Shown: one piece after another, positions 1,222 through 7,356 of the stretch | Layout of the letters: the number at the start of each line of letters is the position of its first letter | Numbering within the stretch: the first letter of the stretch is position 1 | NCBI GenBank assembly: GCA_963775425.1 | Contig: CAVZJB010000005.1 | Location: 128,001 to 192,000 of the forward strand | Origin: an uncultured delta proteobacterium | GTDB lineage: Bacteria > Myxococcota > UBA727 > VGSZ01 | Direction: 5' to 3' | DNA: 64,000 nucleotides | Notes under the pieces: model-generated | Told to the model about the DNA's origin: nothing | The model's input: the letters and a program-made list of their open reading frames with translations, nothing else | Databases searched by the model: none | Program-made: the position numbers and the translations under genes

Positions 1222-1551
1222 CTACACGACGTCGAAGGCGGAGCGGCCCTGGCGCAAGATGGCGACGCGCGTGCCGTCCTCGAGGACCACGTGCGGCCCC
1301 TGCGAGCGGTTGGCCTCGACGTGCCACGTGTCGCCCTGCTTGAGTACGCGCACGACGCCGTCCCGCATGAAGCGCAGCGAGCCCGAGAGCACCTTGCCGT
1401 TTTCCTCGCTCGGGTGCGTGAGGGCCGGGATGATCACGCCCTGCGCCGCCTCGATGACCTCGAGGGTCTTGCCGTCGACCTGGCCCAGCCGGGCGATCCG
1501 CAAGCCGCGCATACCGGGGATCTCGACGAAGGCGTTGTTTTCGACGTGCAT
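1222..1551 (-). CDS. small cupin-domain protein
   Basis: Cupin-like pattern IPALTHPSEE..VLSGSL.F......L..GD.W.V; GC-type codon usage. Confidence 0.7.
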   Translation of the reverse strand: MHVENNAFVEIPGMRGLRIARLGQVDGKTLEVIEAAQGVIIPALTHPSEENGKVLSGSLRFMRDGVVRVLKQGDTWHVEANRSQGPHVVLEDGTRVAILRQGRSAFDVV

Positions 1552-1600
1552 AGGGTGCGGAGCCTATCAGGGCGAAGCCACCGCGCGATAACATTGCCGC

Positions 1601-2221
1601 GTGCTGTTGCGGGCGCTCCCCCTCGTCGCCCTCTTTGTCTCGGGCATCCCGGTCGGAGACGACGGGCTGCCCGAAGAGAGCCCCTGGGCCGCCCGCGACG
1701 CCGCTGCGCCCGAGGCGGCGTGCGCCCCGCCGGTGCCGGGCTTTCTCACCCTCGAGACCAAGCCGTGGACCATCGTCTACGTCGACGGCCTCTACGCCGG
1801 CTCGACGCCGCTGTTCCGCGAGCGGCTCACCGCCGGCACGCACACGCTCACGCTGGTCAACGAGGCGCGCGCCATCTCCAGGAACGAGGACGTCGTCATC
1901 GAAGAGGGCAGGGCGCGCAAGCTCAAGCTCGTGCTCGCCGTCGACGACAGCGCGGCCGCCCTCGACAACACCACCGTCGTAGGACTGACGCCGGAGGACT
2001 GCGCGCTGCCGCCCGACGAGGCTGCGAGCCTCAGCGTCGATACGCAGCCGTGGTCGCGCGTCTTCGTCGACGGTCGGCTGGTCGGATCCACGCCGCTGTT
2101 CAAGTACGCGATCGCCGCCGGCGACCACGTTGTGCGCCTCGTGCGCGCCGACGGCAGGGCCGCCTTCGCCCGCTTCAACGCCGCCGCCGGCGAGACCGTC
2201 AAGCTCGCCCTCGCCCTGTAG
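1601..2221 (+). CDS. secreted protein with two PEGA domains
   Basis: N-terminal hydrophobic signal; two copies of T.PW..V.VDG...GSTPL....L.AG.H. Confidence 0.85.
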   Translation: MLLRALPLVALFVSGIPVGDDGLPEESPWAARDAAAPEAACAPPVPGFLTLETKPWTIVYVDGLYAGSTPLFRERLTAGTHTLTLVNEARAISRNEDVVIEEGRARKLKLVLAVDDSAAALDNTTVVGLTPEDCALPPDEAASLSVDTQPWSRVFVDGRLVGSTPLFKYAIAAGDHVVRLVRADGRAAFARFNAAAGETVKLALAL

Positions 2222-2230
2222 GAGAAACGC

Positions 2231-2259
2231 GCACCGGATCCGCCGCAATGCCGATAACC
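2231..2259 (+). promoter_or_regulatory. putative sigma28 (FliA/WhiG)-type promoter
   Basis: GCAC-N15-GCCGATAACC; GCCGATAA is the sigma28 -10 consensus; GGAGG RBS at 2268-2272 and ATG at 2278. Confidence 0.6.
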
Positions 2260-2277
2260 GAGTGCCGGGAGGTTTCG

Positions 2278-3075
2278 ATGTCCACGATGTCCCTGACGCA
2301 CAACCCCGTCTCCGACCTGATGCACCTGCGCTGGGGCGTGAGCTCCGTGAAGACGGCGCAGGCGACCATCCAGGCGCAAAACGTCCGCGGCGTCGGGTCC
2401 TTCCTGCAGAGCTTCGGCGTCAGCGGCTCCACGCTCGAGCGCCTCGGCATGAGCTCGGTGAACGCCCAGGCGGTGCTCGGGGCCGAGGGGTGGCGCGGCA
2501 GCGTCAACGTCTCGCGCCAGCTCTCCCAGAGCCTCACGTCCACCCGCCCGGTGTCGACGCTGCTCGAGAGCGTGCGCAACGGCTGGGGCTCGTTCGAGAC
2601 CCAGATGCCCCGGCTCTCCGGCGCGGCCAAGAGCGCCGCCGGCGTCTGCAAGTCCGCGGCGACGGGGCTCGCCGGCGGCTGCAAGAGCGCGCTGGCGGCC
2701 GCCAAGTCGAGCGGCTTCTTCGGGAGCATCTTCAACGGCGTCAGCGGCCTGATGTCGAGCGTGGGGCGCGTCGCGGGACCGATCCTCGGGCCGCTGGCCA
2801 AGATCGCCGCGCCCATCACCAACGCGCTCAAGGGCGTCGGCAACTTCATGCGGATGATCCCGGGGCTCAACCTGATCTTCGCCGCCACCGACACCTTCAA
2901 GGCCGTCACCTCCCTGTTCGACCCGAACAAGAGCTGGAGCGAGAAGCTCGCCAACCTCGGCAAGGCCGCGCTGTCCATCGGCGCCGCCCTCCCCATCCCG
3001 GGCGCCTCGCTCCTCGGCGGCGCCCGCGGCGCCTGGGCCATCGGCGACGCGGCCGGGAGCCTGCTCGGGAAGTGA
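2278..3075 (+). CDS. hypothetical Gly/Ala/Ser-rich protein with hydrophobic C-terminal helices (265 aa)
   Basis: C-terminal part of ORF 277..3075; GGAGG precedes ATG 2278; no Sec signal; C-terminus IPGLNLIFAATD...AALSIGAALPIPGASLLGG. Confidence 0.8.
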   Translation: MSTMSLTHNPVSDLMHLRWGVSSVKTAQATIQAQNVRGVGSFLQSFGVSGSTLERLGMSSVNAQAVLGAEGWRGSVNVSRQLSQSLTSTRPVSTLLESVRNGWGSFETQMPRLSGAAKSAAGVCKSAATGLAGGCKSALAAAKSSGFFGSIFNGVSGLMSSVGRVAGPILGPLAKIAAPITNALKGVGNFMRMIPGLNLIFAATDTFKAVTSLFDPNKSWSEKLANLGKAALSIGAALPIPGASLLGGARGAWAIGDAAGSLLGK

Positions 3076-3096
3076 CGACCCGCGTATAGTTCGCGC

Positions 3097-4128
3097 GTGG
3101 CGTTCAACCTCAAAGACGACCCCCGGATGCGGCAGCGCCTCGAGGGCGCTGTCGGGCTCTCCCCCAAGGACATCGACGCGCCGGCGGCGGAGCTGCCGCC
3201 GCTGTCGTCCATCTCCGTCAAGCTCTCGGTCCCCGACCCTCCCGGCGAGATGGAGATCCTCGAGCGCTACCGCCAGAAGCTCCGCGACCTCGCGGTCATC
3301 ACGTCGAAGAAGCCCGGCGAGCCGGTGGCCCTCGGCGACGAGGTCTGCGTGTGCACCGTCGGGCACATCGCCGGCGCCATCTTCGCGGGCAGCATCAGGA
3401 ACAACCACTGGATGGAGATGGTCCCCGACGACTCGCTGCCGGGCTTCGTCGAGCAGCTCGCGGGCATGCCCGTCGGCGGCGCCGGCGTCATCCCCGTCGT
3501 CGTCGGCGACAAGGTCGCCGCCATGGCCGTCCGCGTCGCCGCCGCGCAGAGCGTCGACATGCCGGACCCCGAGGACCCCGCGTCCCTCGGCGTCGCCGAC
3601 ACCCTCGAGGGCACCCTGGAGGTCGTCGGACGCGAGCTGTTGCAGGAGGCCGAAGAGGCGACGCCGCTTCGGGCGATGAACGCGGTGATGAAGGAGCTCG
3701 CGACGCGCGCCGTCGTCGAGGTCCCGTCGACCGCCGTCGACGCGGAGATCCAGCGCGTCTGGCGCCTCGCCGAGGGCGACGCCTGCATCGCGCTCGGCCT
3801 CACCGTCGACGAGCAGCAGGAGGCGCTCAAGCTGTGGCTCGCCGACGCCGGCGTCCGCGCCGAGGCCACCGAGCGGCTCAAGAGCTGGGCGGCGCTCAAG
3901 GCGGTCGTGGCCAACGACGCGCTCACGCCGACGCCCGAGGGCTGGCGCCGCTTCCTTCAGTCCTTCGCGCCCGTGCTCGGGCAGACGCGGGAATTCCTCC
4001 AGGCGGAGATCGACAAGGACCCGAAGGTGAAGGCGGAGCTCGCCGAGCTCGCGTTCCAGATGCAAGTGGTCGACCACGTCATGGAGAGCGTGCGCGTCGA
4101 GATCGTGGAAAAAGCAACGGGCCCGTGA
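3097..4128 (+). CDS. trigger-factor-like protein (FKBP-like + C-terminal chaperone domain, no ribosome-binding domain)
   Basis: GDEV.V..VG...G..F.G, LPGFVEQLAGM.VG and VEVP.TAVDAEI resemble trigger factor domains 2-3; the GFRxGxxP motif is absent. Confidence 0.75.
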   Translation: MAFNLKDDPRMRQRLEGAVGLSPKDIDAPAAELPPLSSISVKLSVPDPPGEMEILERYRQKLRDLAVITSKKPGEPVALGDEVCVCTVGHIAGAIFAGSIRNNHWMEMVPDDSLPGFVEQLAGMPVGGAGVIPVVVGDKVAAMAVRVAAAQSVDMPDPEDPASLGVADTLEGTLEVVGRELLQEAEEATPLRAMNAVMKELATRAVVEVPSTAVDAEIQRVWRLAEGDACIALGLTVDEQQEALKLWLADAGVRAEATERLKSWAALKAVVANDALTPTPEGWRRFLQSFAPVLGQTREFLQAEIDKDPKVKAELAELAFQMQVVDHVMESVRVEIVEKATGP

Positions 4129-4139
4129 GGGCCCGCTGC
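4109..4139 (-). terminator. rho-independent terminator of the 4163-4516 gene
   Basis: Stem GCA-A-CGGGCCC / GGGCCCG-C-TGC with a 4-nt loop; AAAAA at 4109-4113 gives a U-tract on the minus strand. Confidence 0.65.
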
Positions 4140-4162
4140 AGTCCCACGGGTGTCGCTGCCGG

Positions 4163-4516
4163 TCACTCGATCCAGTTGGCGAACTGCGCGGCGGTGGCGT
4201 AGCCGGCGGCCCCGCCGATGGGGCCGAACGCGCTGCCGGCGACGGTGCCGCCGACGAGGGCGCCGAGGCCCACGGTGCCGCGCGCCACGTTGAGCGGGCC
4301 CTCGGCGAGGTCACCGACCATGCCCAGCGTGCCCTTGATGGCGTCGCCGGGGATGGAGGTCCAGTTGAGGGTCAGGAAGTCCTTGGCGACGGTGCCCACG
4401 GTCTTGAGCCCGTCCCACGCGGCCTTGAAGGGGCTGATGATCGTCTGGCCGACGCCCTTGACGATGTCTCCGATGCCCTTGAACGGCGCGCTGACGAGGT
4501 TGCTGAAGAAGCCCAT
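4163..4516 (-). CDS. small glycine-zipper protein (117 aa), bacteriocin/pore-former-like
   Basis: GGAGG then ATG at 4516 (MGFFSNLVSAPFKG...); amphipathic Gly-rich N-half; C-terminal GLGALVGGTVAGSAFGPIGGAAG zipper. Confidence 0.8.
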   Translation of the reverse strand: MGFFSNLVSAPFKGIGDIVKGVGQTIISPFKAAWDGLKTVGTVAKDFLTLNWTSIPGDAIKGTLGMVGDLAEGPLNVARGTVGLGALVGGTVAGSAFGPIGGAAGYATAAQFANWIE

Positions 4517-4558
4517 GGTGTCGCCTCCCTGATCGTGTGTGTGTGTTGGATGCGCGTT

Positions 4559-4587
4559 GGTTATCGGCGCGGGGGCCTCGGGGATGC
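4559..4587 (-). promoter_or_regulatory. putative sigma28-type promoter
   Basis: Minus strand reads GCAT-N15-GCCGATAACC, followed by a CA-rich leader and GGAGG before ATG 4516. Confidence 0.6.
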
Positions 4588-4618
4588 CTACCTCCACGCA
4601 GATCCGCGCCTACCGACG

Positions 4619-5155
4619 TCAGATGCGGCGGGGCCCCTTGCCGAGCTGGTCCGGCCGCAGCGCCCCCTCGGGCGGTTTGTCCCCCACTTTCGCGGGGATG
4701 GGACGGTCCTTGCCGCCGGTCACGGCGGTGGCGGCGACGGTGGCGGACTGCTGCTCGAAGCGCGCCTTGGTGTCCATGTCGACCAACTGGTAGCGCAGCA
4801 CCGCCTCGTTGATGAGGATCACGAGGCCGGTCGCCAGGTCGTTTTTGTGCATCTTCTGGTGGAGAAAAGCCGCCATCAACAGGAGGTCGTCGAGGGCCTT
4901 TCTGTGGGTGCTCGCCGTGCGGGCGGCGTCGAGCTGCTTCCACCAATCCGCCGCGATCTCCGGGGTCCATTGGTCGCGAAAGCCCTGGCCGTCGTCCGTG
5001 AGGAGCATCGTGAGCGTGCGCAGACAGATGTCGTGGACGCCGCGGTCCTTGAACATCTTCTCGAGCTCCGCCCACTTGGCGTCGAGCTGGGACTTCTCTT
5101 CGGGGCTGAAGCTTTCGTCGGCGCCCGGGGCGCCACCCTTGGGATCATCGGTCAT
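4619..5155 (-). CDS. hypothetical helical cytoplasmic protein
   Basis: 178 aa ORF with coding-like composition, 14 nt downstream of the kinase/PP2C gene. Confidence 0.75.
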   Translation of the reverse strand: MTDDPKGGAPGADESFSPEEKSQLDAKWAELEKMFKDRGVHDICLRTLTMLLTDDGQGFRDQWTPEIAADWWKQLDAARTASTHRKALDDLLLMAAFLHQKMHKNDLATGLVILINEAVLRYQLVDMDTKARFEQQSATVAATAVTGGKDRPIPAKVGDKPPEGALRPDQLGKGPRRI

Positions 5156-5169
5156 GGCGTGAGCCTACC

Positions 5170-7356
5170 TCATTGCACGGGGTGAACGGCGACGACGACG
5201 CAGGAGATGTTGTCGAATCCTCCCGCGCGGTTCGCGAGCACCACGAGCTCGAACGCGGCGCGCGCGGGGTCCTCGAATTCGAGGAGCGTCTCGAGCATCT
5301 TGAGATCGGTGTCGTTGGGGGGCGCGCCGGGGCCGGCGGCGAAGTCGGCGATGCCGTCGCTGCAGATGAGGATGCGGTCGCCGGGGAGCAGGCGCAGACG
5401 GAACGCCTCTGGCTCGAAGGGGTCGGGCCGGGTGGTGCCGTCGTCGTCGACGATGACGCGGCCGACGACGCGGGTGAGCGCGGTGCCCATCTGCACCTGC
5501 GCGGCCTCGCGGAAGGTGAGGCCCATGCGCAGCGCGTCGGTGGTGCGGTCGTGGTCGATGGTGATCTGCTCGATGACGCCGTCGCGGATGAGGTACGCGC
5601 GGGAGTCGCCGAGGTTGCCGATGGTGGCCTCGCCGTGGACCACGAACATCGCGCACATGGTGGCGCTCATGACCTGGTTGGGCTCGTTGGCGACGGGCGC
5701 GTACTTGGCGTTGACCTCGGCGCTGATGCGCTTGCCGGCGCTGCGCGAGATCTGCTTCATGATGTCGGCGCGCTGCCCGTGGTTGAGCTCGAGGGCCGCC
5801 TGGCCGCCCTTCTCGAGGCCCGTCCAGCGCTGCAGCGCCGCGATCTCCACCTGCTCCGCGGCGAAGGCGCCGTCGCCGAACTTCGAGCGCGAGACGCCGT
5901 CGGAGATCATGTAGAGGCCGATGCGCGCGTTCTCGTCGGTGACGGAGAGCGCGCGGTCCTGTTGGCCCGAGCCGCGGCGCGCCTTGGCGAGACCGGTGTG
6001 CTGCTCGGCCCACGCCTCGAGGACGACGTCGGACTGGCTCTCCGCCGCGCGCGCCTCCTCGATGAGGCGCGTGCGCGCCTGCTCGAGCGCGCGCTTGAGG
6101 GCGCGCGCCCAGCCGACGCGGCGGGCGGGGTTGGGCTCGAGGCACGGGCGCAGATACGGCCAGATGCCGAGCGGGCACTCCGGGCGGAACACGCGCGGCG
6201 ACACGAGCATCGCGGGCTCGACGTCGGTCTCGAGCGGCGCGCGCTTGGCGAGCAGCGCGTACAACAGGAGCGCCACCGAATACACGTCGCTGTGCGCGCC
6301 CATGCGGTACGTCATGCGCCGCCGCACCTCGGGCGCGCAAAACAGGCCGAGGGCGCCGGTGGGCAGCGCCCCGGCGCCGTACAGGCCGCTCACGGCGTAG
6401 AAGCGGACGCGCCCGCCCCGCTCGATGACGATCTGGCTCGGGTCGAGGTCGTAGATGAACTGCCCGGCGCCGTGGAGGCTCTCGAGCAGCTCCGCCAGCT
6501 CGATGCCGAGCTCGAGCGTGGCCATGGCGGGGAGGATGCGCTCGTCGTCGTTGAGGTAGTCGACGACGGTGTTTCCCTTGGGCCGCTCGAAGACGCGTAC
6601 CGCAGCGCGCTCGAGGGTGACGCGGCAGCGCGGGCGCACCACGCGCGGATCGGGGAGGTGCGGCCAGGGCGGCTCCGGCATGGTGGTGGCCGTCCACACC
6701 GCGGTGAACGCCTGCTCCTCTCCCTCGAGCCGGGCTCGATAGAAGACGCTGCCGTTCTGCTCGCCGAGGGAGTCCTCGAGCTTGACCACCAGGCCGTCGT
6801 CGGCCCGGAGCGGCTCGCCGGGCTCCGGGGGCAGGGGGCCGACGTCGGTGCCGGCGTCCTCGACGATGGGCGCGCCCTCGACGGTGGCGCCGTCCTCCAC
6901 GGGCTCTTGATCGTTCGACTTCTCGTCCTGCGTGCCGGGGCCCCGGAGGGGAATCTCGAGATCCGCGGTCTTCTCCTGCAGGGGGTCGTTGTCGTCGCTG
7001 TATGCCGGGAGCGACGCCGCCGTGAGCTCGTCGAAGGGCAGCGCCGCGACGTCGCCGGGCGGGAGCGTGGCCGCTGCCTCGACGACGGCCTCGAGGACGT
7101 CGGGCGGCCCGATGTTCGCCGCGGCGGGGGGGACGGGGTCATCGGCCCCATCGAGGGCGGCCAGCAAGGGCTTGCTGACCTCGGCCGTGGGCCCCTCGAA
7201 GGGATCGCCGCTGACGAGATCTCCGAGCGGATCCGACGAGGGCATCGTCGCGCGGTGCGCGATGCTCGGGCGCTCCGTGGTGGCCTCGGACAACACCTCC
7301 ACCTGCGCCGGCACGGGTCCGGTCGTCGGCTTCTTGTTGTCCGGAGGGTTCGTCAC
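5170..7356 (-). CDS. pseudokinase-PP2C phosphatase fusion with acidic disordered N-terminus
   Basis: PP2C motifs ISDGV, NLGDSRAY, QITIDH, ICSDG and GGFDNIS; degenerate kinase (YDLDPSQ, FCAPE, SDVYS). Confidence 0.85.
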   Translation of the reverse strand: MTNPPDNKKPTTGPVPAQVEVLSEATTERPSIAHRATMPSSDPLGDLVSGDPFEGPTAEVSKPLLAALDGADDPVPPAAANIGPPDVLEAVVEAAATLPPGDVAALPFDELTAASLPAYSDDNDPLQEKTADLEIPLRGPGTQDEKSNDQEPVEDGATVEGAPIVEDAGTDVGPLPPEPGEPLRADDGLVVKLEDSLGEQNGSVFYRARLEGEEQAFTAVWTATTMPEPPWPHLPDPRVVRPRCRVTLERAAVRVFERPKGNTVVDYLNDDERILPAMATLELGIELAELLESLHGAGQFIYDLDPSQIVIERGGRVRFYAVSGLYGAGALPTGALGLFCAPEVRRRMTYRMGAHSDVYSVALLLYALLAKRAPLETDVEPAMLVSPRVFRPECPLGIWPYLRPCLEPNPARRVGWARALKRALEQARTRLIEEARAAESQSDVVLEAWAEQHTGLAKARRGSGQQDRALSVTDENARIGLYMISDGVSRSKFGDGAFAAEQVEIAALQRWTGLEKGGQAALELNHGQRADIMKQISRSAGKRISAEVNAKYAPVANEPNQVMSATMCAMFVVHGEATIGNLGDSRAYLIRDGVIEQITIDHDRTTDALRMGLTFREAAQVQMGTALTRVVGRVIVDDDGTTRPDPFEPEAFRLRLLPGDRILICSDGIADFAAGPGAPPNDTDLKMLETLLEFEDPARAAFELVVLANRAGGFDNISCVVVAVHPVQ

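Follow-up and report, generated by a model that had tools for sequence, protein, structure and literature searches.

What would place the same ten nucleotides ahead of two convergent orphan genes? The question is raised by positions 2231-4587 of a 64,000-nucleotide stretch of DNA from an uncultured Myxococcota group (the window: the whole stretch analysed, positions 128001-192000 of contig C5 in the source genome, G000, which has 8.26 Mb, 72% G+C and is 94.55% complete). Two genes here, gene 1 and gene 3, match no Pfam or NCBIfam family, and between them lies gene 2, a trigger-factor paralog (Trigger_C PF05698, E 6.8e-9, residues 174-329; Table 1). The initial annotation of the window had pictured a dispersed module of late substrates for a type III secretion system (T3SS) with its own trigger-factor-derived chaperone, and its description of the locus is borne out by the coordinates: both orphans are preceded by GCCGATAACC and by a GCAY tetramer exactly 15 nt upstream (GCAC at 2231-2234, + strand; GCAT at 4587-4584, - strand); the box occurs nowhere else in the window, where its first eight nucleotides, GCCGATAA, are found at 2250-2257 (+) and 4568-4561 (-) and in no further copy; GGGAGG precedes both genes, in line with the reported GGAGG ribosome-binding sites (RBSs); the trigger-factor paralog stands between them; and neither orphan has a Sec or Tat signal as judged, here and throughout, by inspection of the N-terminus together with a hydropathy scan. 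On the sequence, we consider the boxes of genes 1 and 3 to be predicted promoter elements of one conserved class. The best-supported reading of that class, to which we give an even chance, is the late-substrate regulon of a non-flagellar T3SS, probably transcribed by a FliA/WhiG-like sigma paralog and served by a trigger-factor-derived holdase: the dispersed module of the initial annotation is retained, its likely machine becomes a non-flagellar T3SS and its likely sigma factor a FliA/WhiG-like paralog, or possibly one of extracytoplasmic function (ECF) type.

The case for a class begins with where the boxes stand. There are 21 copies of GCCGATAA on the two strands of G000, 8 of which lie no more than 120 nt upstream of called starts, against a background of 6.25% (11465/183325) over 1675 8-mers of the same composition; by upstream fraction, GCCGATAA ranks 8th among those 8-mers that have at least 10 copies. 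(Gene starts outside the window are our own calls, based on the G+C content of third codon positions, GC3, rather than on a curated annotation.) The 10-mer GCCGATAACC has four copies in G000, each just ahead of a start codon, and six of the nine copies of the 9-mer GCCGATAAC are upstream of called starts. A position count over 12 sites brought out a weak second block at -35 (G in 10/12, A in 7/12, A or C in 10/12), and the promoter class is written G[AC]A[ACT]C-N16-CGATA[AC], which equals GMAN-N15-(GC)CGATAA. When the two blocks are separated by n nucleotides, the pattern peaks at a single spacer: n=16 yields 19 sites, of which 10 precede called starts (11 counting gene 1, whose start was called too early), n=17 yields 14 sites with 3 upstream, and the other spacers from 8 to 26 yield 2-9 sites each with 0-2 upstream. 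With a relaxed two-block pattern, 17 of 30 sites at n=16 are upstream of genes, to be compared with 3/19, 3/31, 1/16 and 3/29 at n=12, 14, 18 and 20. The genome scan that the initial annotation had proposed thus returns both an enriched placement of the box and a peak at spacer 16.

The class is also kept across the family, for which we compared 10 other genomes (4 genera, counting G000). A 291-aa orphan (C16:1046453-1047325) has orthologs in all 10, at 41-72% identity in the alignment, and GCAAC-N16/17-CGATA[A/C/T] is kept upstream of these orthologs in 10/10 genomes as the flanks diverge. Likewise, GAAAC-N16-CGATA[CA] stands ahead of the operon of a second truncated trigger-factor paralog in G000 and at 4 of 7 relatives' loci; two of the other three loci end too early, and one has no match. 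Since a genome-wide peak at a single spacer is accompanied by conservation in all 10 relatives between diverging flanks, the class is not due to chance.

About 17 units in G000 belong to the class, and most encode proteins without signal peptides (Table 1). The box is common to orphans that lie in or beside T3SS loci and to genes adjoining small tetratricopeptide repeat (TPR) proteins of SycD/LcrH-like type, which may point to co-regulation; CdsG and SctY are also among the NCBIfam matches of the TPR proteins. An orphan of 486 aa precedes the second truncated trigger-factor paralog, and over its last 45-70 residues it matches the C-termini of the two chaperone-linked orphans of 291 and 268 aa. 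We also observed a Gly-rich family without signal peptides that is represented in G000 by five paralogs, has orthologs in 10/10 other family genomes and carries a strongly conserved C-terminal stretch (..ESRNIEFE.LKNEMQKLSQMQQAMSNVLN..AIR.IK). Gene 1, gene 3 and the 291-aa family show no homology to one another (hhalign probabilities of at most 1.3%). A needle or filament subunit was considered for the 291-aa family, on account of its C-terminal domain, and rejected: no Pfam needle family matched, and the sole PDB match, XaxA at E 0.13, is not significant. Mostly eukaryotic domains were noted in three class proteins: a calpain-type protease, annexin with PG_binding_1, and an APP1 phosphatidate phosphatase (C9:281935-283770, -; C16:16293-18299, +; C5:468236-469081, +).

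Gene 2 differs from a housekeeping trigger factor in that it has no ribosome-binding domain (trigger-factor residues 1 to ~110), to judge by matches that begin at 103-124: that to TIGR00115 (80.4 bits; cut-off 180.2) covers model positions 103-409, and on solved trigger factors the alignment of its profile sets in at residue 113-124. Only ~29 residues of gene 2 lie ahead of the point where the trigger-factor match begins. The housekeeping tig is at C16:847471-848694 (349 bits). The second truncated paralog (C7:240037-241320, 124 bits) also has no ribosome-binding domain and follows the 486-aa protein, which carries no signal peptide; it is conserved in 9/10 family relatives, it adjoins the 486-aa protein in G000 and 7 relatives, and at the loci examined it always comes directly after a member of the Gly-rich family described above. 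At our locus gene 2 starts 21 nt past the end of gene 1, with which it probably forms an operon, and homologs of both were found on contigs of matching size (2710 and 38935), which suggests that the pairing is kept elsewhere. In a predicted complex of gene 2 with gene 1, built on our own shallow alignments (5 and 9 rows), the scores were 0.77, 0.77 and 0.73 and the best of 3 controls scored 0.00 (the mark for this score was reached by 116/157 solved complexes and by 2/215 mismatched pairs); the runs had at least 67% of contacts in common, the pLDDT (the model's per-residue confidence) of the partner was at least 53, and the stretch of gene 1 placed against the trigger-factor body spans residues 71-246. 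The chaperone of the initial annotation is therefore upheld as to its ancestry, by Trigger_C, and its binding to (or wrapping of) the gene 1 protein is a prediction of the complex model only. Gene 2 belongs to no known class of T3SS chaperone (I, II, III), and gene 3 has no chaperone-like neighbour.

Two type III machines are encoded in G000, where the initial annotation had spoken of a flagellum-related T3SS. A complete flagellar cluster occupies C9 at ~332-381 kb (fliC, fliD, fliS, flgK/L/M/N, flgH/I, flhA/F/G, motAB, fliE-I and two FliA paralogs), and a separate non-flagellar set is dispersed over at least four places (Table 1). In the passages of PMC10849154 and PMC12075869 that treat it, the needle-less T3SS* of Myxococcus xanthus is needed for prey lysis; those of PMC10849154 describe no needle or translocon homologs and name no substrates. 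As far as these passages go, the second system of G000 resembles it as another non-flagellar basal body of type III that is found in Myxococcota and does not have its genes gathered in a single island; it differs in that it belongs to another Myxococcota family, which is also flagellated. A type VI secretion system was considered as the export route and rejected: its sheath gene, VipB/TssC, was not found in the 94.55%-complete G000. We note in passing that a complete flagellum (flagellin, hook, rod, L and P rings, motAB) is here found in a Myxococcota lineage.

Table 1. Features of the locus (window positions), members of the promoter class, and non-flagellar type III genes of G000 (contig positions)
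Feature	Position	Strand	Description
Gene 1 promoter	2231-2259	+	-35 GCACC (2231-2235), N16, CGATAA (2252-2257) inside GCCGATAACC (2250-2259); predicted, spacer-16 class member
Gene 1 RBS	2267-2272	+	GGGAGG, 6 nt ahead of ATG 2278
Gene 1	2278-3075	+	265 aa; Ser/Gly/Ala-rich; predicted all-helical; no signal peptide seen
Gene 2	3097-4128	+	343-aa trigger-factor paralog without N-terminal ribosome-binding domain
Terminator-like hairpin	4114-4139	-	11-bp stem, 9 G-C pairs, then TTTTTCC; directly 3' of gene 3, overlaps gene 2 end
Gene 3	4163-4516	-	117 aa; 18.8% Gly; glycine-zipper-like C-terminal third; no signal peptide seen
Gene 3 RBS	4524-4529	-	GGGAGG, 7 nt ahead of ATG at 4516
Gene 3 promoter	4559-4587	-	-35 GCATC (4587-4583), N16, CGATAA (4566-4561) inside GCCGATAACC (4568-4559); predicted, from two-block scans
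Class members of this locus			gene 1 + gene 2 (probable operon); gene 3
Class members, orphan then small TPR protein			268 aa, 177 aa, 291 aa; best NCBIfam match of the TPR protein SycD/LcrH, at 56.7, 36.8, 75.6 bits
Class member, orphan then trigger-factor paralog			486-aa protein, then second truncated trigger-factor paralog
Class members in or beside T3SS loci			301-aa orphan within the sctRST-sctQ-yscO-sctN-sctD cluster; 161-aa gene adjoining sctU
Class members with known domains, no signal peptide			PG_binding_1 in four (Phage_lysozyme2 also in one of these, annexin in another), LysM, calpain, APP1
Gly-rich family paralogs	C16:1046453-1047325; C7:238519-239979; C18:111106-~111880; C6:223528-224334; C3:506400-507614
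Second T3SS set	C9:110000-123000		sctRST, fliO-like, sctQ, yscO-like, sctN, FHA-type sctD
Second T3SS set	C9, 218 kb		sctJ with FliG-like neighbour
Second T3SS set	C16:1085376-1086395		sctU
Second T3SS set	C4:94448-96469		sctV alone among polysaccharide genes

We propose that these parts work together as follows. The boxes would be promoters of one alternative-sigma class that drives two convergent units, one consisting of genes 1 and 2 and the other of gene 3 alone, ending at the hairpin (the hairpin scan gave 1 site against 0.8 expected from shuffles, and is weak taken alone). Gene 2, having lost the ribosome-binding domain, would act post-translationally, wrapping the hydrophobic Gly/Ala/Ser-rich protein of gene 1 as its dedicated holdase. 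The same promoter class would switch on all of the ~17 units; since their products mostly have no signal peptide, and several of the units are linked to the dispersed non-flagellar T3SS, genes 1 and 3 would most likely be late substrates of that machine, either membrane-active effectors or accessory parts. Transcription would probably fall to a third FliA/WhiG-like sigma paralog (C13:131434-132138).

The choice of this sigma factor starts from the -10 element. In the passages of PMC12784957 on such promoters, GCCGATAA is the sigma28 -10 consensus, and the Pseudomonas aeruginosa fliC promoter has TCTAAAG at -36..-30 and GCCGATAA at -15..-8. An exact GCCGATAA with 15 nt between it and the -35 tetramer, which is the sigma28 geometry, is present at both of our sites, as the initial annotation had recognized; with the 8-mer of gene 1 placed at -15..-8 in this way, the predicted transcription start is ~2265, and that of gene 3 is predicted at ~4553. 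No sigma70-type promoter was found in 2000-4800. FliA/WhiG sigmas, for which a search had been suggested, are indeed encoded in G000 (TIGR02479: 210.5, 188.1 and 155.0 bits; cut-off 189.6). The third of them scores 155-164 bits across the family and is found in 10/11 family genomes, the exception being 76% complete; whether it is the sigma factor of the class we regard as evenly poised. A search for FlgM-like anti-sigma factors gave one match only, in the flagellar cluster, with no second. Our searches of the open-access literature turned up no paper that links GCCGATAA to type III secretion in Myxococcota; nor did they yield one that deals with FliA in flagellated Myxococcota.

That the two 10-mers are a chance pair without function would be a far-fetched explanation. 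Two window copies of GCCGATAA, where 0.36 are expected, are reached in 3/100 shuffles, and the genome-wide total of the 9-mer GCCGATAAC is not raised (9, as against 17 for a reversed-pattern control), such that what stands out for it is placement only and not number; but both sites agree in their 10-mer, in the geometry of the -35 and in being oriented toward a gene, and a chance origin is already contradicted by the peak at one spacer genome-wide and by cross-genus conservation. Instead, genes 1 and 3 might be late genes of the flagellar class, transcribed by flagellar FliA and with products that leave through the flagellar gate, as would suit a genome with a complete flagellar cluster, two FliA paralogs and FlgM, and promoters with the canonical sigma28 box at -10; the passages of PMC10849154 on the subject describe flagellar export of non-flagellar proteins in other bacteria. 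However, none of the 21 GCCGATAA copies is in the flagellar cluster, and the late flagellar promoters of fliC and flgM carry a different, AT-rich box without GCCGATAA; these and the pilT-like/motAB promoter have a TAAA/TTAA -35 and a CGAA/CGAC -10. Moreover, the genome G006 (92% complete, 20 contigs), in which we found no flagellin, no FliA above 156 bits and a single FHIPEP gene, still has the class box ahead of two operons. Because the flagellar promoters of G000 itself differ, and the apparently non-flagellate G006 keeps the boxes, flagellar FliA and flagellar export become improbable, and with them the initial annotation's control by sigma28 in its literal sense. There is also a somewhat unlikely variant in which regulon and function are as we propose but the sigma factor is of ECF type, as HrpL is for the hrp box. 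ECF promoters have a -35 with AAC, a spacer of ~16-17 nt and a -10 CGT. A -35 of G[AC]AAC followed by N16 and CGA resembles TGAAAC-N16-CGTA, which counts against a FliA/WhiG-like sigma; GCAAC/GAAAC-N16 is found in many members, genes 1 and 3 having GCACC and GCATC, and the -10 has CGA where the consensus has CGT. The 'GC' ahead of CGATAA is, in addition, not kept in orthologous footprints. On the other hand, eight promoters match the full sigma28 8-mer GCCGATAA, and no sigma gene is among the class sites upstream of genes, so autoregulation is not seen, with one case set aside: an ECF gene at C8:371386-372030 has GCATC-N15-CGATAG upstream and was considered as the cognate sigma, but its orthologs in 10 relatives conserve CTTTGCG-N~17-GGGTCGT, which is unrelated to the class, and its box is therefore a coincidence.

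The main rival accepts the class as real and takes it for a developmental or envelope-remodelling programme, under a WhiG-like or other sigma, rather than for secretion: genes 1 and 3 would encode membrane-associated or structural proteins of the producer, and gene 2 would keep the gene 1 protein soluble until it is inserted into the cell's own membrane. WhiG-type sigmas control development, not flagella, in some bacteria, and the wall-binding and lysozyme-like proteins of the class could remodel the cell's own wall. We nevertheless find this rather unlikely: wall-binding proteins without signal peptides need a non-Sec export route, class members are located within the T3SS cluster and beside sctU, and calpain, annexin and APP1 look like cargo for another cell. 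The rival does draw on some of the findings that weigh against a secretion regulon, which we list together here. The SycD/LcrH matches of the TPR proteins are all under the NCBIfam cut-off of 104.8 bits, and TPR proteins as such are a generic group; no T3SS gene lies anywhere near genes 1 and 3, nor does either of them adjoin a TPR gene. Some class members (C2:114362, C5:215707) bear signal peptides. In favour of secretion, the N-termini of 17 members are richer in S/T/N/Q/P than the proteome (0.343 vs 0.228; resampling P 1.5e-4), but this P value is biased because the proteins were picked partly by eye and members with signal peptides were left out. A search of the 10 family genomes and 50 further relatives recovered neither gene 1 nor gene 3 (for gene 1, two marginal matches only in these 60), and scans of genome and metagenome contigs gave no loci homologous to gene 1, so the evidence of conservation comes from other class members and not from these two promoters; most of the GCCGATAAC copies sampled in relatives are inside coding sequence. 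As to the sigma factor, the -35 is not TAAA (GCAC and GCAT at the two sites, G[AC]A[ACT]C across the class), the third FliA/WhiG-like paralog is under its cut-off (155 vs 189.6 bits), and the genes around it, which belong to the kynurenine pathway or are otherwise unrelated, are uninformative on its role. Lastly, the maximal hydropathy over 19 residues is only moderate (1.41 for gene 1, 1.44 for gene 3), and the alignments behind the complex model are shallow.

Returning to the secretion regulon, we also consider a more specific version of it: that a sigma28-derived paralog has been taken from the flagellum to run the late substrates of a myxobacterial non-flagellar T3SS, with the GMANC-N16-CGATAA box listing the cargo. 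We regard this as possible but tentative. If true, the box would provide the first sequence-readable cargo list of that T3SS, ~17 units that cover wall-degrading, eukaryote-like (calpain, annexin, APP1) and glycine-zipper proteins, and the question of what the Myxococcus T3SS exports would become testable because a conserved box marks candidate substrates. The hrp box did likewise for the effectors of plant pathogens, its HrpL being an ECF sigma; BtrS is found in Bordetella. The likeness to these systems is that a short two-block box, scattered genome-wide, marks T3SS substrates and their helpers, and that, as with the hrp box, the cargo set can be listed from sequence. In contrast, the box sequence here differs, the sigma family probably does too, the host is an uncultured Myxococcota group, and the T3SS in question is dispersed and resembles those of chlamydiae or Myxococcus. 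With the class III genes of FliA and FlgM the class would share the -10 GCCGATAA, the 15-nt spacing and a dedicated sigma for late type III substrates; it is set apart by its G[AC]A[ACT]C -35 in place of TAAA, by targets that are non-flagellar orphans, and by the single FlgM, which is that of the flagellar cluster.

The chaperone would be of interest as well. Trigger-factor paralogs without the ribosome-binding domain would, if the secretion regulon is correct, be a chaperone class new to type III secretion, and a client-specific trigger-factor holdase would illustrate how a general chaperone of the ribosome can be put to another use. PceT and RdhT are trigger-factor-like dedicated chaperones of reductive dehalogenases, and the client of PceT, in Firmicutes, is a Tat substrate. 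Gene 2 is similar in being a trigger-factor paralog that is encoded beside a single client, which it would hold before export; here, however, the clients are Gly-rich, have no signal peptide and belong to a putative T3SS regulon, and there are two such paralogs, one of them conserved across the family. Class II chaperones (SycD/LcrH/SicA) and their translocators offer the other comparison: three other class members have such TPR neighbours, and gene 2 would fill the same holdase role for gene 1, but it has a trigger-factor fold and not a TPR fold, and homology to translocators is seen in neither gene 1 nor gene 3.

Genes 1 and 3 themselves are real coding sequence, to judge by their GC3 values of 0.985 and 0.983. 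Among 5.8 billion clusters, gene 1 has 10 homologs (45-71% identity) and gene 3 has 3 (66-68% identity); a profile of gene 1 found 17 representatives among 1.84 billion. The last ~70 residues of gene 1 form a conserved module (..MRMIPGLNLIFAATD..GKAALSIGAALPIPGASLLGG..) that recurs at the C-termini of proteins with varied N-terminal parts, mostly without a signal peptide, and that resembles a shared delivery or membrane-insertion domain; in metagenomic proteins (P0023-P0034) it reads ..R[FM][VI]PG[VL]N[VL]A..D..DP..S..KK..AAGS..AA..IPGAS... In Pfam and NCBIfam, neither gene has homology to pore formers, and the best look-alikes in the Protein Atlas (0.84 and 0.87) are under the 0.9 mark. The structural models are all-helical and unreliable (pLDDT 42.4 for gene 1 and 41.8 for gene 3), too poor for a fold search. 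Of the Gly/Ala-richness that the initial annotation saw in both proteins, gene 3 has a clear share (G+A 32.5%, 97th percentile) and gene 1 a mild one (26.8%, 78th percentile). The glycine-zipper-like C-terminus likewise holds for gene 3, in which GxxxG motifs start at residues 85, 90, 94, 98 and 101 (run 85-105), and is reduced in gene 1 to small-xxx-small runs at 122-146 and 243-260. These repeats are a motif only and no evidence of pore formation: with no family, unreliable models and moderate hydropathy, any membrane activity would be surmised from composition.

The surroundings of the locus may be described briefly. No Rfam family was found in 1500-5500. A PEGA-domain protein with a hydrophobic N-terminus (window 1601-2221, +) ends 29 nt 5' of the gene 1 promoter box. 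On the other side, two genes upstream of gene 3 and on the same strand, 5170-7356 (-) encodes a 728-aa protein with a weak protein-kinase match and a PP2C phosphatase domain, and between the two lies a 178-aa protein of no family (4619-5155). At a wider scale, the same taxonomic order contains a family of 21 sampled genomes of 0.3-3.4 Mb, to be compared with 5-8 Mb in the family studied here, an unusual spread in size that may reflect host-dependent relatives.

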